In this document: positions 11,233-26,244 of the stretch, piece after piece
Position numbering within the stretch: the stretch's first letter is position 1
How the letters are laid out: each line of letters opens with the position of its first letter
NCBI GenBank assembly: GCA_016776635.1
Contig: JADHSZ010000007.1
Span: 1,066 to 65,065 of the forward strand
Direction of reading: 5' to 3'
Length of the DNA stretch: 64,000 bases
DNA from: Alphaproteobacteria bacterium
GTDB lineage: Bacteria > Pseudomonadota > Alphaproteobacteria > UBA11136
The notes under the pieces: generated by a model
Databases searched by the model: none
Told to the model about the DNA's origin: nothing
What the model saw: the letters and a program-made list of their open reading frames with translations, nothing else
Position numbers and translations under genes: made by a program

Positions 11233-11243
11233 TGCTCAGGCAA

Positions 11244-11409: not shown

Positions 11410-11465
11410 TGTACCGGGATGACACACAGGCATCGGAAAAACCATAAAATCTCAACACTTCCCTG

Positions 11466-12026: not shown

Positions 12027-12086
12027 CGCGCCCTCCCATTTTACCTTCTAGAAGTTATGAGCACCTACTACAGCGTGTTTGGAAAA

Positions 12087-12239: not shown

Positions 12240-12287
12240 TATCTCCTCCTATCTGTCTAATTATGGAAAGTGTAGGAACCACACACT

Positions 12288-12563
12288 TCACTGATACCAA
12301 AGGTAAAATAACCAAGGGAGAAATTCGCTTGGATCCTGAATCATTACATAAATTCCATACGGCCATACAGCCCCACGAAGGAATGCAAAAAATACCCCTA
12401 GAGCAAAGCCTATAATCGAAGTGCCAAACCCAAGGTTCCAAAAGGCACCAGGACCAAATCCATAATAGACCGCGGCTGAACACATGCTTATGGAGGCGAT
12501 ACCAGCCCCAATAAGAAAGTATGCCGTAGCAATATTGCCAATTAGAGATTTTTGTTCAGTCAT
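12288..12563 (-). CDS. Small integral membrane protein
   Basis: MTEQKSLIGNIATAYFLIGAGIASISMCSAAVYYGFGPGAFWNLGFGTSIIGFALGVFFAFLRGAVW has 2-3 hydrophobic helices. Start moved to the ATG at 12563. Confidence 0.5.
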   Translation of the reverse strand: MTEQKSLIGNIATAYFLIGAGIASISMCSAAVYYGFGPGAFWNLGFGTSIIGFALGVFFAFLRGAVWPYGIYVMIQDPSEFLPWLFYLWYQ

Positions 12564-12600
12564 CCTGCCCCCCCCCAACATCACCCCTGTTTAAATAAAA

Positions 12601-13149
12601 TCACCTAGTAGGCTTAACAGAGTTATCCAGAAAATTCTCCATTGTGGCTGATGGAGAAAGCGATGCTGGCTCACCAACAGCGACCATCATCGTTGATCTC
12701 TGGCCTAAATACATCCGCGCTTGAAATGCAGCATTTATCTGCTCTCCCGCCTCAACAAGAACACGCCTACCAATCATCCTTAGCGTCACATGATTACCTT
12801 GCTCTTCCCAATACATTTGCGAGTTTTTAAGATTAGTCATCTTTAGCCACTCGGCCATAGCCCACTCGGCCATTTTTTGCTTCTGGCTCGTCGTAGCATC
12901 TGGAGTTAACCGAAACGAAGTATCACATTGGGCAACAAATAATCGGCCAGAGCGATTGTCTCCAGCCTGCACCATATAGGTATTGGAATACAGATCATTG
13001 CCCAACGCCTGGACAACCTTCTTTACGGATGGCCGAAATGGAAAATCGACTTTGAACTCGCATTCTTTGTTAGAAAATTCAAACGCAAGTGATTCGCCGG
13101 AAATAATGGTCCCAAGCAAGATAAGTGTAATAACCCCGAACAACTGCAT
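12601..13149 (-). CDS. Exported hypothetical protein
   Basis: N-terminal signal-like MQLFGVITLILLGTIISGESLA. 182 aa. No motif recognised. Confidence 0.5.
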   Translation of the reverse strand: MQLFGVITLILLGTIISGESLAFEFSNKECEFKVDFPFRPSVKKVVQALGNDLYSNTYMVQAGDNRSGRLFVAQCDTSFRLTPDATTSQKQKMAEWAMAEWLKMTNLKNSQMYWEEQGNHVTLRMIGRRVLVEAGEQINAAFQARMYLGQRSTMMVAVGEPASLSPSATMENFLDNSVKPTR

Positions 13150-13470
13150 AACTGCAAATCCACTCCCTAGGGTGTGTGTGTCTCCGACCTGCAGCCAACA
13201 GTAAGCCCCCTAGGGCCAACAAGTCATTTATTATTGAGCCGCTAGCATCGCCGTTTTCGAGGTGCACACGTATAACCGTATAACTTTCAGCCCATTTCCG
13301 ATAACCAGAACGTCTGAAAGCACCTAAACCTCAACAGAGATTCCGGTAATTGCTCCCTAATCCGGAAATTCAGGGGGAAAACTGGTAAAAAATAGTAAAA
13401 GTTACACGTGATTTGGGGTGGGCTAGTGTGTGCTGTTTTGTCCCGAAGGGACACGCCGTAAGATGGTGAA

Positions 13471-13992
13471 ATGTTAGCTAAAGCCTATTTCATAAGATCA
13501 CTTTCCTTATGTGCAGTATGTGCAGTGGCCGTTTTGCTCATCTCAGGGTGTGCAGCTACCGGCACAGCATATACAGAAGCAAAGTCTACAATCCCATCAT
13601 TGGAAGTTGGGAAAGCTCGTCTATATTTCATGCGGGAAAGCTCTTTCATAAATTCCATCATAGCGGCACGAATTCATGCCAATGGCGTTAGAGTGGTAGA
13701 GCTGAATATGAGCGGCTTTGCCTACGCCGATCTGCCTGCGGGTGAAATTCTTATTATGATTGACGATCTGCTAAACCCTGGTGAATCGAGACAAATGATC
13801 AATATAGAAAGTGGCAAGACGTACTATTTCCTGGTTGCTAACAACTCTAGCAATGTCATGGCTGGGGCGATTGGAGGTTTCATCGGTGCGGTGTCAGAAG
13901 GCGGTGGGCGTTTCGCCTTTTACAGAATTTCTGAAGAGATGGCCTTGGAACAACTCAAAATAAAGAAGCTAAGCGGAACTTCGCCACCGTAG
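13471..13992 (+). CDS. Lipoprotein (DUF2846-like by eye)
   Basis: Lipobox LLISGC after a hydrophobic N-terminus. ..GKARLYFMRESSFINSIIAARIHANG..VELNMSGFAYADLPAGE.. resembles DUF2846 lipoproteins. Confidence 0.55.
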   Translation: MLAKAYFIRSLSLCAVCAVAVLLISGCAATGTAYTEAKSTIPSLEVGKARLYFMRESSFINSIIAARIHANGVRVVELNMSGFAYADLPAGEILIMIDDLLNPGESRQMINIESGKTYYFLVANNSSNVMAGAIGGFIGAVSEGGGRFAFYRISEEMALEQLKIKKLSGTSPP

Positions 13993-14061
13993 AGAATTTA
14001 ATAGAACTGAAAAATACAGCTATTGTCCACTACTGAACGATAACAGACATCAAGCAATAGA

Positions 14062-14090
14062 CCCCGCCAGTTTCTAACAGCGGGGCCTTT
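14062..14090. terminator. Candidate hairpin terminator between convergent genes
   Basis: ccccgc (14062-14067) pairs with gcgggg (14080-14085) across a 12-nt loop, followed by cctttgtg. The stem is weak and the loop long. Confidence 0.3.
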
Positions 14091-14141
14091 GTGGGGAGAA
14101 AATTAAAGAGCCTGTTAAGTGATTTTGCAGCTTCGGGAAAA

Positions 14142-14819
14142 CTAGAATCTCGCTCCTAGCACAGCAAGGCCGGAGAAATTCCTAAATTCAACATCTGCAC
14201 TGAATAGCGTCGCGTCCGTTAGGAAGTAGGAACCTCTTGCTCCAATGTAGACCCTATCCGTGATGTCGTAGTCCCCACCAAGAAAGACCTGTCCAGCAAA
14301 ATTAGTATCACTATCATCTGCAGAACCAGTAGCCTGAAAAGTTGTCCCGTTAACGGTAACGGTAACACCGGCACTAATATCAGCGGAGGATTTTGCGAAG
14401 CCAATACCGCCCCCGATGTAAGGGTGAAATTTTGCGTTGAACAGTTTCCCCTTGTTATCACGAAGAGCAGCATTAACGAGAAACGCATCAATTTCGGGAT
14501 CAATATCAAGAAATCCCGTCAGAGTAGCGTTGAGAAAGGTCGCCGATGCAGTTTCACTGTAGTCCGAGTCCTGAAGACGAAGATATTGCAGCCCAAGGGA
14601 CAGGTTCTCATGAAAAGCATTATCAACCCAGAGACCCAAGCCTAGAGCCAGGCCAGTATCCGTATCGAGATCATCGGTGACACCCGCAAACTCGACCTCG
14701 GGGTCTCCTCCATGAAATCCCAACTCGAATTCAGCCCTTATATCTTTAGCTTGCACAAAATGTGTGTTTGCCGCGAAGGCCACAAAAAATAGTGCGGGGA
14801 GCAGGTAATTATATTTCAT
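14142..14819 (-). CDS. Small outer-membrane beta-barrel protein (OmpA-N/OmpW-like porin family)
   Basis: Signal peptide MKYNYLLPALFFVAFAANTHFVQA. Alternating hydrophobic beta-strand pattern, Gly/aromatic rich. C-terminal ...LAVLGARF ends in Phe, as in OMP sorting signals. Start moved to the ATG at 14819. Confidence 0.65.
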   Translation of the reverse strand: MKYNYLLPALFFVAFAANTHFVQAKDIRAEFELGFHGGDPEVEFAGVTDDLDTDTGLALGLGLWVDNAFHENLSLGLQYLRLQDSDYSETASATFLNATLTGFLDIDPEIDAFLVNAALRDNKGKLFNAKFHPYIGGGIGFAKSSADISAGVTVTVNGTTFQATGSADDSDTNFAGQVFLGGDYDITDRVYIGARGSYFLTDATLFSADVEFRNFSGLAVLGARF

Positions 14820-15038
14820 AGGCTTATTAATTATTAAGCGCCTAGTTGTAACCACCTATGGTGGCATGCGGCACATACCATTAATACCTAAAATATATAA
14901 AGGTGATCTTTTTTTTCGAGGGTGTGTCCAACAAAGCACAGCACCTAACGGGGTCAGGCCAAGTCGGAACTAACACAAATGAACAACTTTCTGCGGTCAC
15001 GATTTCATACCAGTGGGTATCCTGCTAAGCTAGTTTCT

Positions 15039-15302
15039 ATGAATCGTCTGCTGTACATTCCCTGCACTGCTGCTGCTGCTGTTGTTCTTCTTATTGGATG
15101 CTCGACTTATGGCCCCTACACCGGGTCCTCTACCTATGGAGGCGGTGATGCGAATGGCGTGACAGTGTATAAAACCATCCATAGCACTCAAGATCAGGTG
15201 GATACGGAGGCGGTGCTTCATTGCAAGAAATTTAACAAAGTGTCACGCCAACTAAGCTGCAGCGATATTCTAGTAAATAGTTGCACCTATGTTTGCGAGT
15301 AG
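15039..15302 (+). CDS. Small lipoprotein
   Basis: MNRLLYIPCTAAAAVVLLIGCSTYG contains the lipobox LLIGC. 87 aa with four further Cys. Confidence 0.45.
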   Translation: MNRLLYIPCTAAAAVVLLIGCSTYGPYTGSSTYGGGDANGVTVYKTIHSTQDQVDTEAVLHCKKFNKVSRQLSCSDILVNSCTYVCE

Positions 15303-15446
15303 CCTGCCGGAAAAAAAATACCGAGATGGCCAACTCAGTGTGAAGCTTGGCTTGTACACTAAGTGCTTTTATTCACTAATTTGAAACTGCGAGCGTCGGC
15401 CGGCCATTAATTAGGCCAGCCACGCAGCTAAGCAAAGCCTGCTTGA

Positions 15447-16391
15447 TTATCTTGGCAAGGCTAAAAACGTCCCACCGTTTCTTTTAGCCACTTCCCTCAT
15501 CAAGATAGGGAATCGGTTTGTTGAATACCGTGAACTAAAGCCAATACCGTGGATCTTAGCTAACCGCTTTCCGGTCCTTTTGTTGGTATTAAGGCCCCTT
15601 AAGGTTTGAATGACTGAATCATATGAAGAACCCGTATAATCATCGCCAAATACGTATATTGATAAGCTGATATTGGGGTTCGCATATTTTCTAAGCGCCA
15701 CTGTTAGCCCCTCAACAGGACTACTGTTAGACGCACTGTTCCAATTTTTAAAAACCCCAGAAATTCTCTTTCGTCTTTGTGGGGTGTCAGGAATCCATTT
15801 TCCAGCATAGCCTGATATTAAGTGGGTGCCATTATCATTCAAAACCTGAAACCCCTTCACCTTCGGGTGAATATCTAAGACCTTGATAAACTCGGCCATT
15901 ACCCGAGACCAAATATCTTTCATGCTGCCAGATGTATCGACAATGAAAATTACGTAATCACTGTCAACGGGAATGCCGCCAACTTCCTCATCTCTTTTCA
16001 CCGCTGTATTTTGGGAAATTGATGCTCTTTTGAGTGACGATTGAACAAGCTCTAAGCCTACAATGTCACTTTCAAGTTTTTGTTTTTTGTCAGCACTCTG
16101 CTCTGAGGTCTGGTCACTTTGCTCCACCTGTTCGGTGAGTTCGGCCCTTAAAGCCTGTTCCTGATCCAGACGTTTTTTTTCAGCTTCGAGCTGCTGGGTA
16201 AGTTCGGTTATTTTCGTTTCGGCAGCAATTACCTTCCTTAGAAGAGCCTGGCTATCCTCCTGTTCGGAAGGAGCTGCAGCTTCTGGTGGTTTATAAAGCA
16301 GCACCAACAAAACAACTGCGCCAAACCCACATGAGACAACATCTAGGAAAGATATGTTGAAGATTTCAAAACTGCGTTTGGGGCGTTTCAT
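15447..16391 (-). CDS. ExbD/TolR-like TM segment + coiled coil + von Willebrand factor A (vWA) domain protein
   Basis: N-terminus MKRPKRSFEIFNISFLDVVSCGFGAVVLLVLL resembles the Asp-containing ExbD/TolR helix. A Q/E/K-rich heptad region follows. vWA MIDAS DTSGSM ... VFGDD. The ATG at 16391 overlaps the upstream stop as ATGA. Confidence 0.75.
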   Translation of the reverse strand: MKRPKRSFEIFNISFLDVVSCGFGAVVLLVLLYKPPEAAAPSEQEDSQALLRKVIAAETKITELTQQLEAEKKRLDQEQALRAELTEQVEQSDQTSEQSADKKQKLESDIVGLELVQSSLKRASISQNTAVKRDEEVGGIPVDSDYVIFIVDTSGSMKDIWSRVMAEFIKVLDIHPKVKGFQVLNDNGTHLISGYAGKWIPDTPQRRKRISGVFKNWNSASNSSPVEGLTVALRKYANPNISLSIYVFGDDYTGSSYDSVIQTLRGLNTNKRTGKRLAKIHGIGFSSRYSTNRFPILMREVAKRNGGTFLALPR

Positions 16392-17401
16392 GGCCAATTC
16401 TCAGCCGGGCTGATTAACAGGCCCCCAGTAGCTGAAGTCCAAGACCAAAATTCAGGCGAAGCTTCAGGATCTCCTTCAATAGGTAACAGGATTACATGAA
16501 CTTTAACGCCTGATCGGGGCGCACTCTCCTGAATGGTTTGACGAAACAACATAACCCTACATGGGCCTGAAATATTGTTGCCCCTTCCAAGAAGAGAACT
16601 GCAGCTAGCAAATGGGTTAAGACTCCCATAACTAGATTCCCCTGATGTGGGCAGGCCATCCGTAATTACGTATAAATCTGTCGGGTTCAGGCCTGATACT
16701 TTTTGGAGTCCCTTTTGAAGGTTGGTTGTACCTTGTGGGACTAGGACCTCTACCTCCTGGAAAGCCTTAGCTATAGCCCTTGGGTTTCTATTATCTAGCC
16801 AGTCGGCGTTACCCAGTGTCTTTACCTTTTGATTAAAAGCTAGGATTGACACTTGGCCAGTCTGTGGAAGCCTTGCTAACAGCCAACGAACTATTTTCTT
16901 CGTTCGAATCCATTTTGGACCATTTTTTTTAATTCGTTCCGAACCGTTCTTTCTGCGGATGATTTCAATCAATTTCTCATCTGTCATTGATGCACTAGCA
17001 TCGATTAGTAGAGCAATTTTCCGCCCTTCGACTTTTAATCCCATAAGATAGTTCTCTTCACCAATTCGATCGTCACTAACGACATCTGAGGTCTGAGCGA
17101 TTGGTGTTTTTTTGATCAATTCTTTCAAGGCATCAAGGCGCGCCTGCTGCGCCGCAATCTGATTTTGGTCGTCAGAAACTCCTTTCTGAATTTTCTTGAG
17201 CATCGCCTGCAATATGGCAATACGTTCTTTTTCTTGATCCGTTAAGGCCTGCAAGCTTGAGATGCCTTCAGCTAATTGATGTTTCTGCAGCTCTAGGGAA
17301 TCCAATTCTGATTGCAAAAAATCAGTTTCTACCACCGGCGCCTCTTCATGCAGCTTAATCAGCATGAAGATAAGAATAACGGCCCCAAGCCCGCATGACA
17401 T
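16388..17401 (-). CDS. ExbD/TolR-like TM segment + coiled coil + vWA domain protein (paralogue). The true start is probably upstream of the listed ATG.
   Basis: vWA MIDAS DASASM ... GTTNL ... ITDGLP. A coiled-coil region is present. Homology to the paralogue continues upstream of the ATG (..RRHRKTEGFNLAFIDI-MSCGLGAVILIF..) in an open frame back to 17476 that has no ATG/GTG/TTG. Confidence 0.7.
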   Translation of the reverse strand: MSCGLGAVILIFMLIKLHEEAPVVETDFLQSELDSLELQKHQLAEGISSLQALTDQEKERIAILQAMLKKIQKGVSDDQNQIAAQQARLDALKELIKKTPIAQTSDVVSDDRIGEENYLMGLKVEGRKIALLIDASASMTDEKLIEIIRRKNGSERIKKNGPKWIRTKKIVRWLLARLPQTGQVSILAFNQKVKTLGNADWLDNRNPRAIAKAFQEVEVLVPQGTTNLQKGLQKVSGLNPTDLYVITDGLPTSGESSYGSLNPFASCSSLLGRGNNISGPCRVMLFRQTIQESAPRSGVKVHVILLPIEGDPEASPEFWSWTSATGGLLISPAENWP

Positions 17402-17459
17402 GATGTCAATAAATGCGAGATTAAAGCCCTCTGTTTTTCGGTGCCGTCTCAGCTCCCGC

Positions 17460-18215
17460 CTACTTGCTAATACGGTTTAGAAGGAACTTCTCACAATAGG
17501 ACTGGGTATCGACTACCAACCCATCCTGAAGCCTTTGGAGCTGATGTAGTAAAAACATCAAAAAAATACTGATCAACAAAGCGACAAAAGTTGAGTTAAA
17601 CGCAACACCTAGGCTGTCCGTCATGCCCGAAATATCACCCGCCAAGGCTTGGTCAGCTTGCGACAAGGCCTGCCCAATCCCTCGAACTGTCCCAATGAAA
17701 CCAATAGATGGAATGGCCCAAATTAGATATCGAATCATTGAGTTCTCAGCCTCTTGCTTAAGGGCCAACGCATTCATACTAGATTCGATGGCATCAGAGG
17801 TGTTCTGAACATCCCCAGTTATTGAAAACCGCCGCAAGCTAGCCATCAGGGCGGTAACAAGCGGGGTTTCTCTTATGTTTTCAGGTAGCTCACCTAAAGA
17901 AGTAAGGGCGCCTTCTAGGCTCGAGGAGTCTGCCGAAGATTCTTCAAGCAGGTCTACGGTGAAAAGATAGCGGTCTTTGAGAATCGCTAGACATTTACTG
18001 AGAATTAAGAAAACACCCCAGCCCATAAGGATGATGCAAATTTCCTGCTCATAATCTTTCAGAATCACGAACAGGTCTCGTGGAGAAGATTGCCCCGCTT
18101 CCTTAGCGGCTTCAATGAGAATGGCCGCCTCAGGCCTGACCAAGCCGATATAAGTTAGGTGGGTAATGGCAATGAAGAAAATAAGCGCCATAATGCTTTT
18201 AAGCATCTGTAACAT
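17460..18215 (-). CDS. MotA/TolQ/ExbB-family proton channel protein
   Basis: 251 aa with two N-terminal TM helices and a cytoplasmic loop. Family signature ..IRYLIWAIPSIGFIGTVRGIGQALSQA...SLGVAFNSTFVALLISIFLMFLLHQL. Confidence 0.85.
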   Translation of the reverse strand: MLQMLKSIMALIFFIAITHLTYIGLVRPEAAILIEAAKEAGQSSPRDLFVILKDYEQEICIILMGWGVFLILSKCLAILKDRYLFTVDLLEESSADSSSLEGALTSLGELPENIRETPLVTALMASLRRFSITGDVQNTSDAIESSMNALALKQEAENSMIRYLIWAIPSIGFIGTVRGIGQALSQADQALAGDISGMTDSLGVAFNSTFVALLISIFLMFLLHQLQRLQDGLVVDTQSYCEKFLLNRISK

Positions 18216-18216
18216 T

Positions 18217-18351
18217 TTATATATCCACGGGGAATGAAGCGGGGGCGTTTAAGCTGAGTGACGGTGTACTGGTTTGAGCAATAGCTAATTTTATAACCAC
18301 CCCACAAACCAAAATGAAAGCGGCAATAAACACTGCTTTTCTGTATGACAT
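18217..18351 (-). CDS. Possible 44-aa single-pass membrane/exported peptide filling the gap between the PEGA/FGE gene and the proton channel gene
   Basis: Below the track cutoff. My translation is MSYRKAVFIAAFILVCGVVIKLAIAQTSTPSLSLNAPASFPVDI. It starts 1 nt after the upstream stop and ends 1 nt before the MotA-like ATG. Confidence 0.45.
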   Translation of the reverse strand: MSYRKAVFIAAFILVCGVVIKLAIAQTSTPSLSLNAPASFPVDI

Positions 18352-18352
18352 T

Positions 18353-20386
18353 TCAATTTTTGGCATTGGTTCCTCCGTATAAATATCTTGCTATCCTAAA
18401 TCCAAGATCATCACGGCTTTCGGCCAAGCCCTCCCTAAAAGATGCGCGTAATTCAGTCAATGTCCCTGAGCGCCAGTTAGAACCTTTTAGAACATGAAGC
18501 CCCTCTCTTTTAGGGCCCAATGGGTCAACTTCGGCTTTTTTCCCATCGGGAGGCACTAACGAATAAAAGTCATGAACCCACTCACTGACATTCCCAACCA
18601 AATCGGAAAGCCCCGATTTCTCAGGATGAAAGCTCCCAACAGGGGCAATATCTGGAAAACCATCGTCGTAATTTGGCACATAAAACTGAACGAGCCCTTT
18701 GGCATTTTCATCAGCAATATTGCCTGTCATTGGAGGGAGCGTCGTATCATCTCCCCACGAAAATCTAGTTTGCGTAGAACGTAACGCTTTGCGGCTAAGC
18801 CATTCCCACTCTGCTTCCGTCAGCAATCGATAGCCGTCAGATGTGGGGTTAAACCCTCGAAGCTTGTTACTAGCGATAACATAAAATGGCCTCAGGCCTT
18901 CCTTAGAGCTAAGCCAATTGCAAAAGGAAATCGCTTCCAACCAACTTATAGAGGTTACAGGAATATTTGGAGTAGATGCCAATGGTGCTGTCTTTTTAAA
19001 TTTTGAAAATTGTTCCTGTGTCACCTCAAATTTGCCAGCATAGAAGGGCTTTTCTAGTACGATATTTCTTAGAAACTCATTCGCTCGTTGCCCTGGTTCC
19101 CCCCGCGGCGCGCCCATTAAAAACTTTGTTGGAAAAAACAACTTTAATTCCACTCCTACCGAATTTTTGTACTCCTTAGGTGCCTCAGCTAGTCGGGCCT
19201 GTAATTCACTTTGTAAAGATACCGTGATTTGTTGAGCCATTTTAGGAGACGGCGTGACTTTTTTTTTGACCGCACGATAGCCTGGCTTCTTAATTTCGAC
19301 ATCATGCTGGATTGCCATCAGTTCGAGAATAATCGGCGTCTCTCCAACTATCGCGCCATCAATGTAAACATTGGCTTTCGGTTGGGATTGAATGTTGACC
19401 TTTCCAAGTTCTGGCTTGAGCTGAAAAGATAAGTTTCTCTCTTGATCTGGCTTTAGAGAAATTTTCTGAGTTTCAGAAAGAAAACCATTCTTGGAATAGT
19501 ACAAGGTGTTGGTTTTTGTGGACGGGACAGCCAACCTTTTTTGGCGCCATTTAGAGGACTCTATTTTCTTTCCGTTTAGGAAAAAATCGCCGCCTGGTGG
19601 ATCAAGTGTAATTTTTAAGAATGCAGTTTTCAGAGATAGTTTGTAATTTCGGCTGATCTCAGATTGCTCATTAGTGATTTCGATCGCATCAGAAGCAGCC
19701 ACATAATTAGGGTGGGTAATTTCCACCTGATAGAGCCCTCCATTTTTCTCAATCTGAAGGGGCGTTGATCCAACCTCTACGCCATTTAAATTCACCGTAG
19801 CTCCGTCAGGCTCAGAGTCGATGTTTAGACTCCCCACTGCAGGCACTAAGTTCACCCGCAATTTTTTTTCCTCCTGACGCTGAATATGAATTTCGTGTTT
19901 TTGCTTTTGAAAATGAGGGTTATTGATTTCTAAATTGTAGCTTCCTGACTCTAGTTCACTATCAAATTCCTTGGCTGTGGCCACATGCTGACTATTAACG
20001 AACCAAAGAGTTTGATCGCTATCGGTATTTGTTTGAATTATTAACCGCCCCGGGATCTCCTCCAAAATTACACTGACTTTGCCCCCAATTTCATATGGAG
20101 GGATTGTTCTTTTCTCAGTCCTATACCCCTTAGCCGAGACAACAATTTCCGGATTACTGGTTAATGAATAAACCTTGTTCCCCACAGTGAAGCCCAACCC
20201 AGTTTGTAGGCGTACTGTTGAGGAAGAGGCGGCTTCTGCGGGCAACACTTCAATTGAAGTGCCCTCCATGATGCCCAACAAGGCAAATAGGAATAAAAAA
20301 GACCCGAAAAGACCAATCGCAAAGAGCAGGTACAGTCGCTTCTGTCTGGCCGCAGCAATTTTTAGATCAAGATTAGAGTTGTTCAT
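18353..20386 (-). CDS. Membrane-anchored protein with PEGA repeats and a C-terminal FGE-sulfatase (SUMF1) fold domain
   Basis: N-terminal TM LYLLFAIGLFGSFLFLFALLGIM. PEGA-like repeats (LNIDSEPDGATVNLNGVEVGSTPLQIE; VNIQSQPKANVYIDGAIVGETPIILE). FGE fold motifs SWLEAISFCNW, GYRLLTEAEWEW, GNVSEWVHDFY, VLKGSNWRSG, GFRIARY. First ATG at 20386; the track start 20422 is TTG. Confidence 0.8.
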   Translation of the reverse strand: MNNSNLDLKIAAARQKRLYLLFAIGLFGSFLFLFALLGIMEGTSIEVLPAEAASSSTVRLQTGLGFTVGNKVYSLTSNPEIVVSAKGYRTEKRTIPPYEIGGKVSVILEEIPGRLIIQTNTDSDQTLWFVNSQHVATAKEFDSELESGSYNLEINNPHFQKQKHEIHIQRQEEKKLRVNLVPAVGSLNIDSEPDGATVNLNGVEVGSTPLQIEKNGGLYQVEITHPNYVAASDAIEITNEQSEISRNYKLSLKTAFLKITLDPPGGDFFLNGKKIESSKWRQKRLAVPSTKTNTLYYSKNGFLSETQKISLKPDQERNLSFQLKPELGKVNIQSQPKANVYIDGAIVGETPIILELMAIQHDVEIKKPGYRAVKKKVTPSPKMAQQITVSLQSELQARLAEAPKEYKNSVGVELKLFFPTKFLMGAPRGEPGQRANEFLRNIVLEKPFYAGKFEVTQEQFSKFKKTAPLASTPNIPVTSISWLEAISFCNWLSSKEGLRPFYVIASNKLRGFNPTSDGYRLLTEAEWEWLSRKALRSTQTRFSWGDDTTLPPMTGNIADENAKGLVQFYVPNYDDGFPDIAPVGSFHPEKSGLSDLVGNVSEWVHDFYSLVPPDGKKAEVDPLGPKREGLHVLKGSNWRSGTLTELRASFREGLAESRDDLGFRIARYLYGGTNAKN

Positions 20387-21818
20387 CGCAAACGAGTTCG
20401 ACGTAAATACGTTCTTGGTCAATTGGAATTTTGACCTTCATCAGTTTGGCCTTAAACCCAGGCCTAATACCCTCAAATATGTAGGTTCCCGGTTTTAATA
20501 GAATAACCTTCTCTTTAACCAGCCCCACCCTGCCAACACCCCTAACAAGAATACTAGTTTGGCTATCAGATCGGATGGTTACATTTGCATCTATCTCAAA
20601 CTTACTAATCAAGGTTTTGAGTTCTGAGGCTAGTGATTTTAAAGCTATGCTTTTTTGGGAAAGCTTTCCCGCTTGGGCAAGGGTCTGTAAGGCCAAAGTC
20701 TCTACGTTGTCGGAAGCCAGCCTATGCGGGTTATGCAGATAGCTAGATATTTCTTGCGTTAAAGAAATAATCTCTACCGCTAACTGTAGGCCTTCCTGGA
20801 TGTCTTGATTGTTTGGGTAGGCTTTGGCAGCGCCAGAGTAAACTTTATGTGCGGTTACCCAATCATCAATCAAAATTGCCGCATGGGCGTTATCAATTGC
20901 CTGCTCCAATTGTATCTCCTTCCCCAAGGCATCAATTTTATTTTTTAAAACGCTAATTTCTTGTCTTTTAGGGAAAATTTTAGCGGCTTGGCTCAAGCTT
21001 GTTTGGGCTTCTTTTAATTTACGGTGCTCGACATAAGCCAACCCATTTTCGACGAACTGGCTGAAGTTATTTTCATCAATTTTATTTTTTAGAGATTGGA
21101 GGATTGGGGTTAATTCTGTGCGTTTTGGATCAATCTGAAGAATCTCATTTAGCACAGTATATTCTTTTTTGATGTCATTTTCTGCCCGAGCGATTTTGGC
21201 CTTCTCCAAGAGAGGCAAAATCTGAGGCAAAATTGAAATTCTCTGTTGAAGCTCTAAGGCTACTGGGTCATCAGCTTTGATCGCTAATGCTTTGTTTATG
21301 TGAAAATTTGATTTTTTATAATTGTTCTGTCGAAAAAACTCAGCCGCACTAGAAATAGCTGATTCAAAAATCGAATCTTTTTCCTCCAGTGCAGCCTCAG
21401 CCAAATCCCTTGCTTGCTGTAGTTCAGCAATCGCCATCTTATAATCTCCCACATTGAAAGATGAGATTGCACGATTCTTTAGGACAATAATTTGGTTAAA
21501 TTTCTCAGGGCTCCACTGGGACAGATCGGCGCCAGAAATTTTAGACTCAAGTTGAGAATCAAACTCCTTAATCCCCTCCTTAAATAAGGCGAGGTCATTC
21601 GTTGGGTCATAAATGGTCGGTTCTGCCTCCGGCTTTTGTGAGGAAGGCGAGACAGGTAAGGCAAGCAACGGCTTTGATGGCTGTTCGCTGTCCCGTAAGG
21701 GGTGCAACACACTAAAAAATAACAAAGACAGACTGATCACGCTGATGAAAACCAGTATGACAATTGTGCGTTGTCGAGAATTTTCCTTATATGCGTGCTT
21801 GAGCTTTTCTTCGAGCAT
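20373..21818 (-). CDS. Membrane-anchored TPR-repeat protein with a C-terminal beta-sandwich-like domain
   Basis: N-terminal TM TIVILVFISVISLSLLFFSV. Several TPR-like units (..GDYKMAIAELQQARDLA.., ..NNYKKSNFHINKALAIKADDP.., ..KLKEAQTSLSQAAKIFPKR.., ..DWVTAHKVYSGAAKAYPNN..). Confidence 0.7.
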   Translation of the reverse strand: MLEEKLKHAYKENSRQRTIVILVFISVISLSLLFFSVLHPLRDSEQPSKPLLALPVSPSSQKPEAEPTIYDPTNDLALFKEGIKEFDSQLESKISGADLSQWSPEKFNQIIVLKNRAISSFNVGDYKMAIAELQQARDLAEAALEEKDSIFESAISSAAEFFRQNNYKKSNFHINKALAIKADDPVALELQQRISILPQILPLLEKAKIARAENDIKKEYTVLNEILQIDPKRTELTPILQSLKNKIDENNFSQFVENGLAYVEHRKLKEAQTSLSQAAKIFPKRQEISVLKNKIDALGKEIQLEQAIDNAHAAILIDDWVTAHKVYSGAAKAYPNNQDIQEGLQLAVEIISLTQEISSYLHNPHRLASDNVETLALQTLAQAGKLSQKSIALKSLASELKTLISKFEIDANVTIRSDSQTSILVRGVGRVGLVKEKVILLKPGTYIFEGIRPGFKAKLMKVKIPIDQERIYVELVCDEQL

Positions 21819-21835
21819 TCTTCACACAGATCTTC

Positions 21836-23089
21836 TCACAGAAGCACGTCTGGTGTCGCCTCTTGAGCATAAATCTGTTTTAGAAATGCTCGCCACTGTG
21901 CAAATTGTTCCTTGGCCGTGCCAGTCAGCTCAACGGTCTTCTTCTCAAACTCAATAACCTGAGGGGCGAGTTCTACATCAACAGACTTTCCAAGCTCCGC
22001 GAGAGCGTCACGATGAACCTTAGCTTCCTCACTAGTCTGAAAACTACTACTCAACACGGATGCTCCAGCAGCGCCTGCAACAGTGGCCCCTGCCATCCCT
22101 AAGGAGGCATCGTTTGGATTGTCTGATTGTGCGCCGGCTACTGCTGCCGCTACGGCAAGAGCAATAAGAAGAACCCCGACAATAGCTTCACCCGCAGCTT
22201 TTGCGTTTGCCTCACCTTCAGCTTTCATCTCTTGGAAGCTTTGCTCTTGCCACATTTTATAACTGTCATCCATTTTTTGACTAAAGGCTTCATAGTCTGT
22301 CTGCAGTCGGTCCACAAACAGCTGGTCTCTTACTCGTATGGCTTTCACACGGGTTAGCATTAAGTCACCATCACTGGGATAACTGACTAAAGAAATACGA
22401 CCGTCTTCATTTTTCATGTGCTGAGCAAAAGCATCTTCGGAGAAGCTGGCCCCAAAACGTAAATCTGTGAGTTTCGCCAATTGATTCAATTGCTTTGAAT
22501 CATAATCGCTGAGCTCTTCAACTATGTAAGCTGCAGCTGAGTCAAACATGGGGTCATATGGGTCTGTCCCCTGATTTCTAACGTTGTTGTAAAATTCCTC
22601 TTCAACGGTGTGATCGAATGATTTGCTTAGCCAACGCTGGCCTGAAATGTCTACAACATCCAACCCCATTTCCACGTCTTCACCGTTGGATTCAATAATT
22701 TTTCCTAGAATGTACAGGTCCCCCGTTGCGGATTTGTCTGGAGTTACCCTTACTGCACCAAATGCCCCTGTTTTTTCCAAAGCCACTTTCAATTTATATG
22801 CGAATCGATTTGCTTCAGCCCGCCTCAATTCAGGCCAAACTCTTTCTTCCTCATAATCTTTTGGGTCTTCAGGCAGTCCTGGGTCAAAAGTCGGAATAAT
22901 GACTTCAAGTTTGGGCTTTAATTCTGCAAGTTCCTCGCCCTCATCTCCCTCATAAGAAGAGGATGTAGCAGGACCAATATTTAATGCCTTAAAAAAGGCA
23001 CTGTCAGTAGCACAGCTTGATAAAAAGAAAGTGCAGCTAACAACAAGCACAACTGTTTTTTTAAAAAACACCCTGATCCCCAAAGCCAT
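21836..23089 (-). CDS. Lipoprotein with a C-terminal hydrophobic segment, function unknown
   Basis: Lipobox FFLSSC after a hydrophobic N-terminus. A late hydrophobic stretch AIVGVLLIALAVAAAVAGA. 417 aa. Confidence 0.6.
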   Translation of the reverse strand: MALGIRVFFKKTVVLVVSCTFFLSSCATDSAFFKALNIGPATSSSYEGDEGEELAELKPKLEVIIPTFDPGLPEDPKDYEEERVWPELRRAEANRFAYKLKVALEKTGAFGAVRVTPDKSATGDLYILGKIIESNGEDVEMGLDVVDISGQRWLSKSFDHTVEEEFYNNVRNQGTDPYDPMFDSAAAYIVEELSDYDSKQLNQLAKLTDLRFGASFSEDAFAQHMKNEDGRISLVSYPSDGDLMLTRVKAIRVRDQLFVDRLQTDYEAFSQKMDDSYKMWQEQSFQEMKAEGEANAKAAGEAIVGVLLIALAVAAAVAGAQSDNPNDASLGMAGATVAGAAGASVLSSSFQTSEEAKVHRDALAELGKSVDVELAPQVIEFEKKTVELTGTAKEQFAQWRAFLKQIYAQEATPDVLL

Positions 23090-23103
23090 GCTGGCTTTCC
23101 TAC

Positions 23104-23760
23104 CTATTCGTCAACTGGCAAGCCTTTATATTTTCGATACTCATTCCAAAGTTTTTCTTTTGTAGCTGGGTTTTTTTCGTTTATCGCAGCGTGACGAATC
23201 TGCGCCTCCAACACACTATCATTATCTGACGGAGGAATATCGTCTGGCAATTTTCCATTACCACCAGAATTTTCACCCGCCAAAGACAGGCTATTCTGTG
23301 ACAACACATCTCCCTGTTGGCCATCAGATAGTTCTGCTGACTCGCTGCCCTCAACACTAGTTACATTTTGATCTTGGGAACTTTCTGTTCCAGATAGCTC
23401 TGAACTGGCAACAGACCCGCCACCACCTAAAGCCCCGCCACCACCTGAAGATCCCCCAGTGCCTGAAGATCCCCCAGTGCCTGAAGCACCTCCAGCGCTG
23501 TTTTGAGTTGATTGCGCATGCTGACAAGCATCAAATTTACTCAAGGAATCAAAAAATGCCTCGTCCATACGAGTAATTTTTTCTTCTTTTGTGAGAGATG
23601 CATCATCCACAAATTCGACGCTGATCTCGGTACAATCAGCAGTCAAGCTAAGGCTCTCCCCATCTTGGGGTTGCTTAACAGTTTGTGCTCTAATCTCATC
23701 CGGCATAGCAAAACAGCTAACGCCATATAACAGTATGATGAAAAATCTCTGGAAAAACAT
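23104..23760 (-). CDS. Secreted Gly/Ser-rich acidic protein; first gene of the operon
   Basis: Signal-like MFFQRFFIILLYGVSCFA. Low-complexity core GGASGTGGSSGTGGSSGGGGALGGGG encoded by an 18-bp tandem repeat. 218 aa. Confidence 0.55.
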   Translation of the reverse strand: MFFQRFFIILLYGVSCFAMPDEIRAQTVKQPQDGESLSLTADCTEISVEFVDDASLTKEEKITRMDEAFFDSLSKFDACQHAQSTQNSAGGASGTGGSSGTGGSSGGGGALGGGGSVASSELSGTESSQDQNVTSVEGSESAELSDGQQGDVLSQNSLSLAGENSGGNGKLPDDIPPSDNDSVLEAQIRHAAINEKNPATKEKLWNEYRKYKGLPVDE

Positions 23761-23793
23761 ATGACCCCCAGAAGGATTTTCGCTCGACTCTGG

Positions 23794-23809
23794 GCTATCT
23801 AATGATAGC
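23794..23809. promoter_or_regulatory. 16-bp palindrome in the divergent promoter region
   Basis: GCTATC-TAAT-GATAGC, 34 nt upstream of the ATG at 23760 and ~145 nt upstream of the divergent YHYH gene. Confidence 0.3.
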
Positions 23810-23954
23810 TCAATTGGTTGCTAAGCCGCTGCCTGATACTTTCAGACAAGCTTATTACAGCCATGTTAGAATACAGCCATACATTGTAAACTATTTGCTT
23901 GCTACATCAATAATTTAAGAATCAGAACCGGTACTCTATTTTTGGCTGTGCCTA

Positions 23955-24275
23955 ATGAAATGGCTACTTGCAATCATGCTTCTCACCATTCCGCTTACCG
24001 CCCATGCTCATGGCGGCGGACTAGACGGCCTCGGCTGCCACCACAATCGCAAGCAAGGCGGCTATCACTGTCACAGAGGAGAATTGTCCGGGCAAAGCTT
24101 CTCCTCAAAGCAAGATGCCCTTAACGCGCTTCCTGGATCTTCAGCAGAGAGCGTGGATCCGCCAAAATCACAACCCCGCCAGTGTTGTAAGGTATGTAAA
24201 AAGGGGAAGCCCTGCGGGAATAGTTGCATTTCAAGAGCCAAAATCTGCCACAAGTTACCAGGCTGCGCATGTTGA
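23955..24275 (+). CDS. Secreted YHYH-domain protein with a Cys-rich tail
   Basis: Signal MKWLLAIMLLTIPLTAHA. HGGGLDGLGCHHNRKQGGYHCH is the YHYH motif. The tail is CCKVCKKGKPCGNSCISRAKICHKLPGCAC. Confidence 0.7.
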   Translation: MKWLLAIMLLTIPLTAHAHGGGLDGLGCHHNRKQGGYHCHRGELSGQSFSSKQDALNALPGSSAESVDPPKSQPRQCCKVCKKGKPCGNSCISRAKICHKLPGCAC

Positions 24276-24736
24276 TATATAGAGCCGTTATTCTTTCTTT
24301 AATGCTCATAGCTTTCAGCGTTCCTGTTTATGCTGACGTAACCGGCAAGCCTCGAATAATTGACGGAGATACCATTGAAGTGGCTGGCCAGCGTATCAGG
24401 CTGCATGGAATTGATGCTCCCGAATGGGGCCAGACTTGCGCCAGGGGAGACGAGGAATATTCCTGTGGACAGGCAGCAACCGAAGCCCTCAAGGAGATGG
24501 TGGCCGACAGAAAGATAAATTGCCAAGGTAAGGACGTGGACCGTTATAGACGAATTGTGGCGGTGTGCTTCGTCGGCGAGACTGACATCAACGCTCGCAT
24601 GGTTGAGCAGGGCTGGGCGCTGGCCTATCGTCAGTATTCAAGTGACTACGTGGGACAGGAAGAAGCCGCCAAGGCTTCACGGGCCGGGATGTGGGCTGGG
24701 AAGTTTGTGAAGCCGTGGGAGTGGCGGCAAAAATGA
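24269..24736 (+). CDS. Secreted thermonuclease (staphylococcal nuclease, SNase fold)
   Basis: Signal MLIYRAVILSLMLIAFSVPVYA. ..IIDGDTIEVAGQRIRLHGIDAPE.. and ..RYRRIVAVC..DINARMVEQGWALAY are SNase hallmarks. The ATG at 24269 overlaps the YHYH stop by 7 nt. Confidence 0.8.
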   Translation: MLIYRAVILSLMLIAFSVPVYADVTGKPRIIDGDTIEVAGQRIRLHGIDAPEWGQTCARGDEEYSCGQAATEALKEMVADRKINCQGKDVDRYRRIVAVCFVGETDINARMVEQGWALAYRQYSSDYVGQEEAAKASRAGMWAGKFVKPWEWRQK

Positions 24737-25473
24737 AGGGGGGTGAGATGAAGGCTCGACGTAATCCTTCATGGAGCCGTGATGAGTTGATCTTGGCGTT
24801 GGACCTCTACATGCAAAACCTAACAACTCCGCCACGTAAAACCAGCCGTGAAATACAAGAACTATCTGATTGCCTGAACCGTCTCGGAATTCAAATAGCG
24901 GGGCAATACGAGAAGTTCCGAAATTCGAACGGCGTCTACATGAAACTTATGAACTTCAGGCGGTTTGATCCTGCGTTCCAAGAAGCCGGTAAGGTTGGAC
25001 TTCAGCGCGGGGGCAAACTTGAAGAAACTATCTGGAATGAATTTTCAAGTGATCCTGTCCGTCTGAGGCAAGTCGCATCTGCAATCCGAACGGTGGTCAT
25101 TAACGGTTCTGTCCCAAACTATTCACCGGAAGAGGATGAGGATACTAGCGAGGCTTCTGAGGGACGTTTACTAACGCGATTACACCGAAGTCGTGAGCGA
25201 AGTCGGAAGCTGGTTGATCAGCGCAAATCGAAGACGTTTAAAGAAAAAGGGAAGCTGACATGCGAGGCATGCGGTTTTGACTTTGAGACAACATACGGCG
25301 AGCGTGGCAAGGGTTTCATCGAGTGCCACCATCTCAAGCCAGTCCACGAACTTGCTGAAGGATCAAGGACAAAACTGGAAGACCTCGCTCTACTCTGCTC
25401 GAACTGTCACCGAATGGTCCACTCCCAAAAACCTTGGCTCACTGTGGAAAAATTGAAGGATCTGATACGTTAG
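24733..25473 (+). CDS. McrA-type HNH endonuclease with an N-terminal recognition-type domain (possible modification-dependent restriction nuclease)
   Basis: HNH/zinc core CEACGFDF...IECHHLKPVHE...LALLCSNCHRMVH. N-terminus ..NPSWSRDELILALDLY....KFRNSNGVYMKLMNFRRFDP. The ATG at 24733 overlaps the SNase stop as ATGA; the ATG at 24748 is an alternative. Confidence 0.75.
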   Translation: MKGGEMKARRNPSWSRDELILALDLYMQNLTTPPRKTSREIQELSDCLNRLGIQIAGQYEKFRNSNGVYMKLMNFRRFDPAFQEAGKVGLQRGGKLEETIWNEFSSDPVRLRQVASAIRTVVINGSVPNYSPEEDEDTSEASEGRLLTRLHRSRERSRKLVDQRKSKTFKEKGKLTCEACGFDFETTYGERGKGFIECHHLKPVHELAEGSRTKLEDLALLCSNCHRMVHSQKPWLTVEKLKDLIR

Positions 25474-25487
25474 AGTTTAGGATAAAA

Positions 25488-25685
25488 TTGACCTCGAAAA
25501 TCGACATATACCGCACTGCCAACCTCTTCATCCAACAACACGGAGAGGAAGCCGCTATTCAGGCAGCTATGAAGGCGGATGAAATGCTTGCCAGGGGGGA
25601 TATGGATGGGAAGGCTGTATGGATGCGGGTGATAGAGGCGATAGAGGAATTATGGGATACAGAGTCGGAAGGAACGGTTCATTAG
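25488..25685 (+). CDS. Small conserved-looking hypothetical protein
   Basis: TSKIDIYRTANLFIQQHGEEAAIQAAMKADEMLARGDMDGKAVWMRVIEAIEELW. I prefer the TTG at 25488 (TAGGATAAAA upstream) to the track start 25434, which overlaps the HNH gene by 40 nt. Confidence 0.45.
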   Translation: MTSKIDIYRTANLFIQQHGEEAAIQAAMKADEMLARGDMDGKAVWMRVIEAIEELWDTESEGTVH

Positions 25686-26101
25686 GTTGGGAACTCACAA
25701 AACGCTAGAGCTAATCCTGATGTCCGCTTATGGCTAACAGCAGACGTTGGGTGAAGCCCGATCTGAATTAAGGCCAGAAGCAAACATATAACACCCCCGT
25801 TTTTAAATCGGCGGGGGGAGTGTTTAGACTTCAAATACCCCACCCCCATAGCATCAAGGGGGTTTCACCCCCTTAACAAACCCCCGACCAACGTTCCGTT
25901 GGATCACTAAAAACACTCGCCGTTGGGCAGACCGGAAAGACATTACTTTCCGGTTGTATTCAAGCGTGATGAAGTTGCCGCCGCCTCAAGGCCGCGCCGC
26001 ACCAGTAACCGTGCGCGGCCTTGACCCGGACGTCTGTGGTGAAAAATCGTCTGTAACCGTGGAGTTACGCTGAGATTCGCAGGGTAAATGCGCCCTACCC
26101 C

Positions 26102-26124
26102 GTGCTCCCTATGTGCTTCCTAGG
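26102..26124. repeat. Tandem 11-mers GTGCTCCCTAT + GTGCTTCCTAG, also present at the int end of the island (candidate arm-type recombinase sites)
   Basis: gtgctccctat (26102-26112) and gtgcttcctag (26113-26123). The same two 11-mers occur at 7447-7457 and 7457-7467 in swapped order. Confidence 0.45.
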
Positions 26125-26130
26125 TATATC

Positions 26131-26160
26131 AATGGCCTAGCGATTTCTCGCTAAGCCATT
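26131..26160 (-). other. 13-bp hairpin with a GAAA loop just 3' of tRNA-Lys (transcript end/processing or att-arm structure)
   Basis: On the minus-strand RNA, AAUGGCUUAGCGA-GAAA-UCGCUAGGCCAUU pairs fully (one G-U). On the plus strand the same position would be a C-A mismatch. No U tract follows. Confidence 0.3.
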
Positions 26161-26168
26161 GATTTTAA

Positions 26169-26244
<76 letters not shown>

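Follow-up and report, generated by a model that had tools for sequence, protein, structure and literature searches.

An island-borne gene cassette pairing a MotA/ExbB-type channel with two membrane-tethered vWA proteins: a candidate envelope motor

What kind of machine is encoded by an operon in which the gene for a MotA/ExbB-family channel subunit is followed by genes for two membrane-tethered von Willebrand factor A (vWA) proteins? The question is raised by a 64,000-nucleotide stretch of alphaproteobacterial DNA (assembly GCA_016776635.1, contig JADHSZ010000007.1, positions 1,066 to 65,065), hereafter the window. Eight minus-strand open reading frames (ORFs) lie at positions 15447-23760, spaced by between -14 and +17 nucleotides, as a preliminary description of the window had noted. 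We number these g8 to g1, following the direction of transcription. Flagella, gliding, and secretion all run on proton-driven 5:2 motors, as do the import of nutrients, the maintenance of the outer membrane, and one anti-phage system. Each further class of motor to be understood has revealed a new way to deliver inner-membrane energy to the envelope. Our answer is that the eight genes probably encode one self-contained envelope machine, arranged around a proton-driven motor of the MotA/ExbB type.

The channel gene, g3 (17460-18215, minus strand), encodes 251 amino acids. Residues 125-235 match Pfam MotA_ExbB (PF01618) with an E value of 1.5e-13 and a score of 51 bits, where the gathering cutoff is 22.9. 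The family signature seen in the preliminary description is thus borne out. Hydropathy gives four hydrophobic segments, at residues 7-27, 58-80, ~161-185, and 201-229. Note that the third is under the cutoff of the hydropathy script and was read from the sequence. In the last two transmembrane (TM) helices, the motifs IPSIGFIGTVRGIG and AFNST, including T176 and T209, are invariant (PxxGxxGTVxGI and NST in reduced form). Among 10 homologues from several classes, P169, G172, G175, T176, G179, N207, S208, and T209 never vary, and the stretch G172-G181 is among the invariant positions. These Pro, Gly, and Thr residues appear to match the pore-lining residues of the MotA/ExbB family. The four-segment pattern looks MotA/PomA-like, as opposed to the three TM helices of ExbB and TolQ. 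Hence, the earlier view of g3 as an ExbB/TolQ-sized protein is right for length but not for topology. No named-subfamily model in NCBIfam (TolQ, ExbB, MotA/PomA, or ZorA) matched at E <=0.01. There are ~8000 homologues at E <=1e-3. The best 120 listed are all at least 71% identical and, where named, belong to Rhodospirillales, Amphritea, or Mariprofundaceae, or are assigned just to Proteobacteria. We take g3 to be a divergent branch of the MotA/ExbB family.

The two vWA genes come next. The first, g2 (vWA-2), occupies 16388-17452 on the minus strand and encodes 354 amino acids if begun at the CTG at 17452-17450. The second, g1 (vWA-1), occupies 15447-16391, also on the minus strand, and encodes 314 amino acids; the two share an ATGA overlap at 16388-16391 if g1 begins at the ATG at 16391. 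The proteins are paralogues, with 27% identity over the N-terminal 160 residues (E 1e-15). Each has a Lys/Arg-rich N-terminus followed by a hydrophobic helix containing Asp, reading EIFNISFLDVVSCGFGAVVLLVLL in g1 and GFNLAFIDIMSCGLGAVILIFML in g2. In g2, a helical stalk of ~100 residues then leads to a vWA domain (Pfam VWA_2, E 8e-8) with the metal ion-dependent adhesion site (MIDAS) motifs DASASM...GTTNL...TDGLPT. In g1, an 82-residue helix and a linker precede a vWA domain with the MIDAS motifs DTSGSM...DT...GDD. The Pfam vWA signal of g1 is weak (0.043), and its fold was read from an AlphaFold2 model built on a 41-sequence alignment (mean predicted local distance difference test, pLDDT, of 74.6). 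In the model, a TM segment (15-32) and a helix (41-122) are joined by a disordered linker to an alpha/beta domain (146-312). For the latter domain, the best Foldseek matches are vWA domains of ANTXR2/CMG2, a bacterial vWA protein, ITIH1, and CaV alpha2delta, with E values of 1.6e-7 to 1e-5 and target-normalised TM-scores of up to 0.67. Residues D152/S154/S156, T203, and D250 are invariant in the 41 sequences. Across 76-79 locus-derived sequences of each paralogue, the DxSxS motif and distal Asp are at least 97% conserved. Conservation of the MIDAS Thr is lower in g1 (60-90%) than in g2 (at least 90%). The claim of two vWA proteins with intact metal sites therefore stands, by Pfam for g2, by AlphaFold2 and Foldseek for g1, and by conservation of the metal-site residues. 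Relatives of g1 fall into 997 clusters at 50% identity (E <=1e-3).

The helices that anchor these proteins share a feature expected of motor subunits. The TM helix with its invariant Asp is FNISFLDVVSCGFGAV in g1 and FNLAFIDIMSCGLGAV in g2, and the Asp comes ~6 residues after the start of the hydrophobic segment. No sequence departs from this Asp in a 36-sequence alignment of the g1 and g2 helices, and the motif [FL][LI]D[VILC][VIM][STAC]C was found in 161 of the 164 homologues reaching the motif search. The consensus, FxLSFLDIMSCGLGAVVL, has no His and no SHLS; an SHLS/His motif is a feature of TolA and TonB helices. The positive-inside rule places the basic N-termini in the cytoplasm. Hence, the stalks and vWA heads would be periplasmic. 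The periplasmic part of g1 contains no ExbD/TolR-fold or OmpA-like domain according to AlphaFold2 and Foldseek, and has the 82-residue helix and vWA domain instead. Matches of g1 and g2 to the NCBIfam 'peptidoglycan-binding protein' model PRK09039 are coiled-coil noise (16-19 bits, with cutoffs above 300).

What else fills the pore of g3, if not these helices? For comparison we used 83 related loci (80 best loci and three from an exact look-up), each with 10-kb flanks and designated by L numbers. Locus counts are from tblastn with the window proteins as queries. When E. coli TolR and ExbD were used as tblastn queries (E <=1e-4), there was no match in the window or in the 83 loci. Similarly, the gene lists of L001-L003 contain no tolR, exbD, or motB-type gene near the channel gene. 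Instead, g2 and g1 directly follow the channel gene in 81 of the 83 loci. Since there is no tolR or exbD neighbour, and two vWA genes with an invariant Asp come after the channel gene, the predicted g3 pore is the likeliest place for the g1 and g2 helices.

The arrangement extends to the rest of the cassette. Homologues were detected for g2 and g1 in 81 loci each, for g5 in 79, g6 in 69, g7 in 66, and g8 in 63. The count for g4 is 28, with the low sensitivity of so short a query. Where the flanks were long enough, all seven large genes were on one strand and in the same order in 52 of 58 loci; the other six mostly had no detectable match to the most divergent genes. The block is thus syntenic in other genomes. 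When one genome per species was scanned, a g3 relative turned up in at least 591 genomes. Hosts include Alphaproteobacteria (Magnetovibrio blakemorei, Aestuariispira insulae, Denitrobaculum, and Sneathiella), Gammaproteobacteria (Methylophaga, Amphritea, Woeseiaceae, Arenicellales, and Pseudomonadales), Zetaproteobacteria, Nitrosomonadaceae, delta-proteobacterial lineages of the Desulfobacterales type, and Binatia. Many carriers come from marine metagenomes, and the species are mostly marine. Identity of g3 to the window copy does not follow taxonomy; it is 64-72% for copies in Binatia and only 51-53% for some in Alphaproteobacteria. This points to horizontal transfer of the gene, and the channel and both vWA genes appear to transfer together.

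One distant clade (Pseudomonadales and Woeseiaceae; channel 45-49% identical) has an extra gene of ~472 codons between the channel gene and vWA-2. It is at 10783-12201 in L061, and the same gap occurs in L062, L064-L071, L075-L081, and L083. The encoded protein has no Pfam or PDB match, and neither a TM segment nor a signal peptide was evident; it may partner the motor from the cytoplasm. Two more ORFs come after vWA-1 in L061, L062, and L065, and the L061 pair has lipoprotein-like N-termini.

Motors of this general design have been predicted in silico. A survey of periplasmic force transducers ('Origin and Evolution of Bacterial Periplasmic Force Transducers', Mol Biol Evol 2025; PMC12204202, section 8 and Fig. 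4c-d) describes TPH-vWA / TolQ-like motors, in which TM-tethered vWA homologues tightly co-occur with tolQ homologues, with no tolR or exbD gene. The vWA genes are mostly heterologous pairs, without the SHLS motif, and encode a TolR/ExbD-like trans-pore helix with a conserved Asp. AlphaFold3 puts the helices inside the pentamer, with the conserved Asp within a Thr ring. The distribution is mainly in Proteobacteria and Verrucomicrobia.

The position of the Asp near the N-terminus of g2 raises the matter of where translation starts. Upstream of the Asp helix there is no ATG, GTG, or TTG, and the in-frame sequence after the preceding stop is TVLASRRELRRHRKTEGFNLAFIDIM. The sole in-frame candidate is the CTG at 17452-17450, 7 nucleotides past the g3 stop codon. 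Only beyond the Asp does a canonical start appear, the internal Met of 'DIM', and a protein begun there would have no Asp and only half of the helix. However, the residues encoded ahead of this Met are conserved, which suggests that the region is translated. Most g2 loci (68 of 82) have an ATG, GTG, or TTG 8-30 codons ahead of the Asp. Thirteen of the 82, the window included, have only a CTG, which is always exactly 15 codons ahead of the Asp; the others are L002, L006-L009, L012-L014, L049, L054, L056, and L057. Initiation at CTG seems the simplest reading, perhaps aided by termination-reinitiation coupling with g3. Note that in L001 the region of homology extends 14 codons ahead of the automated g2 start. 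Truncation of vWA-2 in this way is frequent in automated gene calls, and the key Asp is lost.

We turn to the genes ahead of the channel gene. The largest, g5 (18353-20386, minus strand), encodes a 677-residue protein with a TM anchor at residues 16-45, PEGA repeats in two stretches (Pfam E 8e-32), and an FGE-sulfatase domain (E 4e-30). It overlaps g6 by 14 nucleotides (20373-20386) if it begins at the ATG at 20386. The FGE-sulfatase fold is C-type-lectin-like. Sequence matches in the PDB are to formylglycine-generating enzyme (FGE; 7e-13), PvdO, TvpA, and PorK/GldK (1.4e-7). The domain aligns with Streptomyces and human FGE at E ~1e-12 and, at the active site, Streptomyces FGE has 'GGSYLCHDSYCNRYR' where the window protein has 'KGSNWR--SGTLTELR'. 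In the alignment to Streptomyces FGE (2q17, 6muj), g5 has no Cys at either position of the catalytic C-x4-C pair, and a role as a catalytic FGE was rejected on this ground. The protein had been called cysteine-less. This holds for the catalytic pair but is loose for the domain, which keeps one Cys (SFCNW). The matches include non-catalytic members of the fold, namely PvdO, PorK/GldK, and TvpA, the variable protein of a diversity-generating retroelement (DGR). Diversification of the g5 domain by a DGR was considered, but the Pfam matches of the cassette proteins and of the L001-L003 genes include no reverse-transcriptase domain; a template repeat was not searched for.

The similarity to GldK brings in another possibility. 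The cassette could encode a machine for surface motility or adhesion, of the gliding or type IX secretion system (T9SS) type, with a motor that moves or exposes an adhesin, vWA domains used as in CglB, and an FGE fold used as in GldK/GldJ. Besides the fold shared by g5 and PorK/GldK, the cassette has a gene for a tetratricopeptide repeat (TPR) protein and, in Myxococcus, the vWA adhesin CglB is coupled to a TolQR-like motor (PMC9946355). Yet the cassette has no gene for an outer-membrane beta-barrel, secretin, translocon, or surface adhesin. The model would tether the vWA domains to the inner membrane by a stalk of ~12 nm, leaving the cell surface out of reach. In addition, g5 is closer to generic FGE than to GldK, and is TM-anchored, not a lipoprotein. 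Against NCBIfam GldK it scores 49.8 bits (3e-13) where the cutoff is 350, and T9SS membership was rejected because this is generic FGE-fold similarity only. Finally, many hosts are marine-metagenomic and have no link to gliding. A gliding-type machine is thus quite unlikely.

The TPR protein, g6 (20373-21818, minus strand; 481 amino acids), matches Pfam TPR_2, TPR_14, and TPR_12. It has one TM segment, at residues 15-42, and a beta-rich C-terminal region. Among the large genes it has diverged most, with 20-39% identity by tblastn.

Upstream, g7 (21836-23089, minus strand) encodes a 417-residue lipoprotein with the lipobox LSSC. From the N-terminus, an alpha/beta domain is followed by a long helix and then by a hydrophobic hairpin rich in Gly/Ala (~295-345); the C-terminal region is helical. 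AlphaFold2 models the N-terminal domain, residues 60-300, at pLDDT 70-95 and the C-terminus with low confidence. The best Foldseek matches of the N-terminal domain are the envelope proteins TolB (N-domain), LptE, and PqiC, with E values of 1e-3 to 1e-2. Among 41 homologues, 14 have a sub-threshold match to Pfam TraT over the helix and hairpin (best 3.9e-6 and 27 bits, cutoff 31), and some homologues are labelled 'SlyB' in Joint Genome Institute (JGI) records. With low to moderate confidence, we regard g7 as probably one of the TraT/SlyB-type, glycine-zipper lipoproteins of the outer membrane. Like those lipoproteins, it has a lipobox and a Gly/Ala-rich hydrophobic hairpin after a helix. Unlike them, it is ~2 times longer, with an extra, weakly TolB-N/LptE-like N-domain and a conserved C-terminal helical domain; all matches are below the Pfam cutoff and g7 of the window itself gives none.

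The first gene, g8 (23104-23760, minus strand), encodes a 218-residue exported protein with an N-terminal hydrophobic segment. A signal peptide is followed by a variable, low-complexity, Gly/Ser middle and a conserved C-terminal motif of acidic and basic residues, DIPxxDNDSxLEAQIRxAAxxExDPxxKxKLWNEYRKYKG, which is kept in most of the ~60 homologues extracted. In the distant clade, a lipobox-like Cys takes the place of the signal-peptidase I site. No match to g8 was found in Pfam, NCBIfam, or PADLOC. An 18-nucleotide tandem repeat at 23413-23448 encodes a GGSSGT-type part of the low-complexity segment. The length of this segment is highly variable, the extracted ORFs running from ~160 to well over 300 amino acids (with starts chosen automatically). 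The smallest gene, g4 (18217-18366, minus strand), lies between g5 and g3 and encodes a 49-residue peptide with a single TM segment (residues 6-35). ORFs of 48-54 codons occupy the same position in L001 and L003.

Hence, g5, g6, g7, and g8 each have a signal peptide, lipobox, or N-terminal TM anchor. All accessory proteins are predicted to be envelope proteins, and the cassette has no cytoplasmic effector or nuclease. No significant Pfam family was found for g1, g4, g7, or g8, and no NCBIfam family for g3, g4, g6, or g8. In a promoter and terminator scan, site counts were not above those of shuffled sequences. Sites of these types upstream of g8 and downstream of g1 are compatible with one operon, but are no proof of it.

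How might the parts work together? By analogy with MotA, ExbB, and TolQ, five copies of g3 would form an outer ring in the inner membrane. The pore would hold N-terminal helices of the vWA proteins, presumably one from g2 and one from g1, in place of those of MotB, ExbD, or TolR. The Asp in each helix could take up and release protons within the membrane. On the periplasmic side, each helix would continue into a stalk of 80-100 residues (~12 nm) capped by a MIDAS-bearing vWA head. Proton flow would then turn or ratchet the ring relative to the vWA axle, converting proton-motive force to force or movement on whatever the MIDAS sites hold. We suppose that the heads bind an acidic ligand on a partner. 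Candidates are the lipoprotein g7, probably in the outer membrane, and the exported protein g8, with its conserved and acidic C-terminal motif. The inner-membrane-anchored g5 and g6 would be periplasmic scaffolds; they may fix the device to the cell wall or themselves be the structure acted upon. There is a precedent in the T9SS, where the PorLM motor, powered by the proton-motive force, drives a ring whose FGE fold has been put to a new use (PMC12421860). The machine might serve to maintain the outer membrane, in surface display or exclusion, or in uptake.

A more specific version of this scheme is that the cassette encodes a portable trans-envelope machine, and a further functional class of 5:2-type proton motor. 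Here, the vWA heterodimer would grip a TraT/SlyB-like lipoprotein or exported acidic ligand via its MIDAS, working against the FGE/PEGA/TPR scaffold. The output would be new to such motors, for example energised outer-membrane remodelling or exclusion. We offer this version tentatively, as possible but somewhat short of probable. If true, it would set the class alongside the flagellar, Ton/Tol, T9SS/gliding, and Zorya motors.

Several results weigh against a motor of the kind proposed. The preliminary description had called the g1 and g2 helices ExbD/TolR-like, and significant sequence similarity failed to appear. Neither protein matched Pfam ExbD or MotB at E <=0.1, and a 36-sequence, 40-column profile of the helix retrieved nothing from the PDB at E <=10. 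In hhalign comparisons with E. coli sequences, the Asp aligned with TolR D23, ExbD D25, and MotB D32 at probabilities of 0.2-4%; the TM anchors of g4, g5, and g6, included as controls, gave the same range. Membership of g1 and g2 in the ExbD/TolR/MotB family was therefore rejected, there being no detectable homology and a different periplasmic domain. For the channel, a g3 family profile found no significant match to a solved motor subunit in the PDB, with B. subtilis MotA the best (E 0.63). The cassette proteins have no identifiable peptidoglycan-binding domain of the stator type, and so either the ring or the vWA axle could be the part that moves. The Foldseek matches of g7 are marginal, and those to TraT sub-threshold. 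A search of the literature found no experiment on any member. Every sequence-level feature of the published description (PMC12204202) is seen at the window locus, whose kinship to the Idiomarina loihiensis seed of that study is putative.

Logically, helices without significant similarity to ExbD, TolR, or MotB could belong to a system with no motor at all. The g1 and g2 products would then be ordinary membrane-anchored periplasmic vWA proteins, like BatA/BatB, with the Asp used for oligomerisation or in some other role, and g3 would pair with an ExbD or TolR protein encoded elsewhere. TM-anchored vWA proteins and TPR proteins do exist together in Bat operons that have no channel, and bacteria usually have several exbBD or tolQR sets that could act in trans. 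However, both paralogues keep the TM Asp without exception from phylum to phylum, as deep in the helix as in TolR, ExbD, and MotB, and this is hard to account for otherwise. The channel and both vWA genes are constantly adjacent and apparently transferred together, and MoxR and DUF58 are absent from the eight proteins and from the conserved block of L001-L003. Moreover, the published AlphaFold3 models put such helices in the pore (PMC12204202). We consider the absence of a motor unlikely. The earlier proposal, of a proton-motive-force-driven channel with its ExbD/MotB-like partner replaced by two TM/coiled-coil/vWA proteins, is instead favoured by the Pfam assignment of the channel, invariant Asp, N-in topology, constant pairing with vWA genes, lack of tolR and exbD, and synteny. 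The 2025 survey (PMC12204202) came independently to such a model with AlphaFold3.

How did a motor cassette come to be in this genome? A tRNA-Lys(CTT) gene identified by ARAGORN (26169-26244, minus strand) marks the proximal boundary of an island. The distal boundary is an att-like repeat, a partial copy of the tRNA-Lys 3' part, at 7282-7343 on the plus strand. The direct repeat is 62 nucleotides long and 87% identical (7282-7343 and 26156-26217). A 25-mer of the tRNA matches twice in the window, where 0 matches are expected by chance. Adjoining the distal repeat is a tyrosine integrase gene (7445-8707) encoding Phage_integrase, Arm-DNA-bind_3, and Phage_int_M domains. With a G+C content of 44.2%, the cassette is close to the island as a whole (46.9%) and well below the rest of the window (60.4%). 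The direct repeat, integrase, and compositional contrast confirm the tRNA-Lys island. We conclude that an integrative island of 18.9 kb (7282-26244) carries the cassette, which is a recent acquisition in this genome.

Between the cassette and the tRNA gene is a nuclease module (23955-25473, plus strand). It consists of genes for a small, Cys/His-rich, secreted protein (23955-24275), an SNase-family nuclease (24224-24736), and an HNH endonuclease (24691-25473) that overlaps the SNase gene, all on the plus strand. This neighbourhood had been taken as a pointer to an anti-phage role. On such an account, the cassette is a Zorya-like system on a defence island, in which the MotA-like/vWA complex senses phage perturbation of the envelope and triggers a response. 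The integrase-bearing island with its nuclease genes fits this idea, and two further observations lean the same way: g3 has a weak match to PADLOC ZorA2 (E 0.0025), and a handful of flanking genes elsewhere match defence models, such as those for MADS and restriction-modification. Conversely, none of the eight proteins convincingly matches a PADLOC defence family, the matches being at noise level, and a known defence system was ruled out on this basis. As described above, the accessory proteins are all predicted envelope proteins, with no cytoplasmic effector or nuclease among them, and g3, at 251 amino acids, is without the long ZorA-type tail. Nor are the neighbours kept. By tblastn, none of the island's other genes is beside the cassette in the 83 loci (SNase in 0 of 83), save for one HNH match in L035. 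Flanking genes elsewhere are varied, being mostly LysR regulators, transporters, and metabolic enzymes, along with TonB-dependent receptors. In 54 other loci, the G+C content of the cassette equals that of its flanks (median difference +0.002), as for a resident operon. Homologues of vWA-1 are absent from plasmid and phage collections. Of 60 loci scanned for tRNA genes, ~12 have one within 10 kb, in a few cases at the cassette edge. Because the composition matches that of the flanks, the flanks vary, and no plasmid or phage copies were found, the cassette is a resident chromosomal operon in most carriers. The island and its nucleases are not a general pointer to function, and we consider an anti-phage role very unlikely.

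Other cargo lies downstream of the cassette. There is a DUF2846 lipoprotein-like gene (13471-13992, plus strand) and a gene for a 237-residue OMP_b-brl outer-membrane protein (14142-14855, minus strand). Genes for small beta-barrel outer-membrane proteins are also close to the cassette in L002 and L003, and no homologue of the window protein was found by tblastn in any of the 83 loci. A 533-residue protein with a weak FtsK-like P-loop match is encoded at 9631-11232. Just outside the island, 5635-6852 (minus strand) encodes a regulator with PAS, winged-helix, and BTAD (SARP-like) domains, with no evident link to the cassette. At 48195-48542 (plus strand), ARAGORN predicts a transfer-messenger RNA (tmRNA), flagged with an asterisk that we take to mean the permuted, two-piece type, with the tag ANDNQIALAA. 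Permuted tmRNA is typical of Alphaproteobacteria, which fits with the closest relatives of the cassette being from Rhodospirillales.

The cassette thus occurs in at least 591 species-level genomes of several phyla, and seems to have been transferred as a complete unit. Its channel is more than 70% identical between classes. Our analysis adds a full parts list, candidate partners for the vWA heads, the putative CTG start, and cultured hosts (Magnetovibrio blakemorei MV-1, Aestuariispira insulae CECT 8488, Denitrobaculum tricleocarpae R148, and Sneathiella sp. HT1-7). These make the motor hypothesis published in silico directly testable.

How does the cassette compare with known systems? Bat/MoxR-vWA operons (BatA/BatB) also encode membrane-anchored vWA proteins near a TPR protein. 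The cassette differs from these in having a proton-channel gene, a conserved heterologous vWA pair, and an invariant Asp in the vWA anchors; it has no MoxR ATPase or DUF58 gene, and was ruled out as a Bat/MoxR system for that reason. Zorya likewise uses a MotAB-like pair in a non-flagellar role, sometimes on mobile islands. Unlike Zorya, the cassette lacks the ZorA tail, the peptidoglycan-binding domain of ZorB, and the ZorC/D/E effectors, the weak ZorA2 match being the only point of contact in PADLOC.

The PorLM (GldLM) and PorKN (GldKN) proteins of T9SS and gliding offer a motor driven by proton-motive force, an inner dimer with a long periplasmic arm, and a non-catalytic FGE-fold protein (PMC12421860), PorK, which is the one matched by the g5 domain. 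In contrast, g3 is of the MotA_ExbB family and no GldL/PorL or GldM/PorM model was matched. The predicted arm is a coiled coil with a vWA domain, not GldM-type domains, and g5 is TM-anchored with PEGA repeats, not an outer-membrane lipoprotein. There is no PorN, Sov, or other T9SS gene, and the hosts are not Bacteroidota.

ExbB-ExbD, TolQ-TolR, and MotA-MotB are alike in several respects. The g3 protein is in the same Pfam family, the partner genes are immediately downstream, and the partner is N-in, with one TM helix whose Asp looks essential and lies at a comparable depth. The differences are that the partners in the cassette have a long helix and a vWA domain with MIDAS, no ExbD/TolR-fold or OmpA-like domain, and no significant similarity to the known partners. 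There are two different partner genes, no gene for a TonB/TolA-type transducer, and g3 is outside the curated family models of NCBI.

The closest likeness is to the TPH-vWA / TolQ-like motors (PMC12204202). Both have a tolQ-like gene without tolR or exbD, a heterologous TM-vWA pair directly downstream, a conserved-Asp helix without SHLS, and a distribution mainly in Proteobacteria. The window copy is set apart by being island-borne and by the apparent CTG start of vWA-2. The preliminary description had known of no characterised system with this composition. Novelty is reduced for the core of a tolQ-like gene and paired vWA genes, which has been published before in silico. Conversely, the five accessory genes, for the PEGA-FGE, TPR, lipoprotein, exported, and small-peptide products, are absent from the published text. 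Since genes of the PEGA, sulfatase, or FGE kind go unmentioned in that text, the apparatus as a whole, with its seven to eight genes, is apparently undescribed. We conclude that the locus is a new, island-borne member of this predicted motor class.

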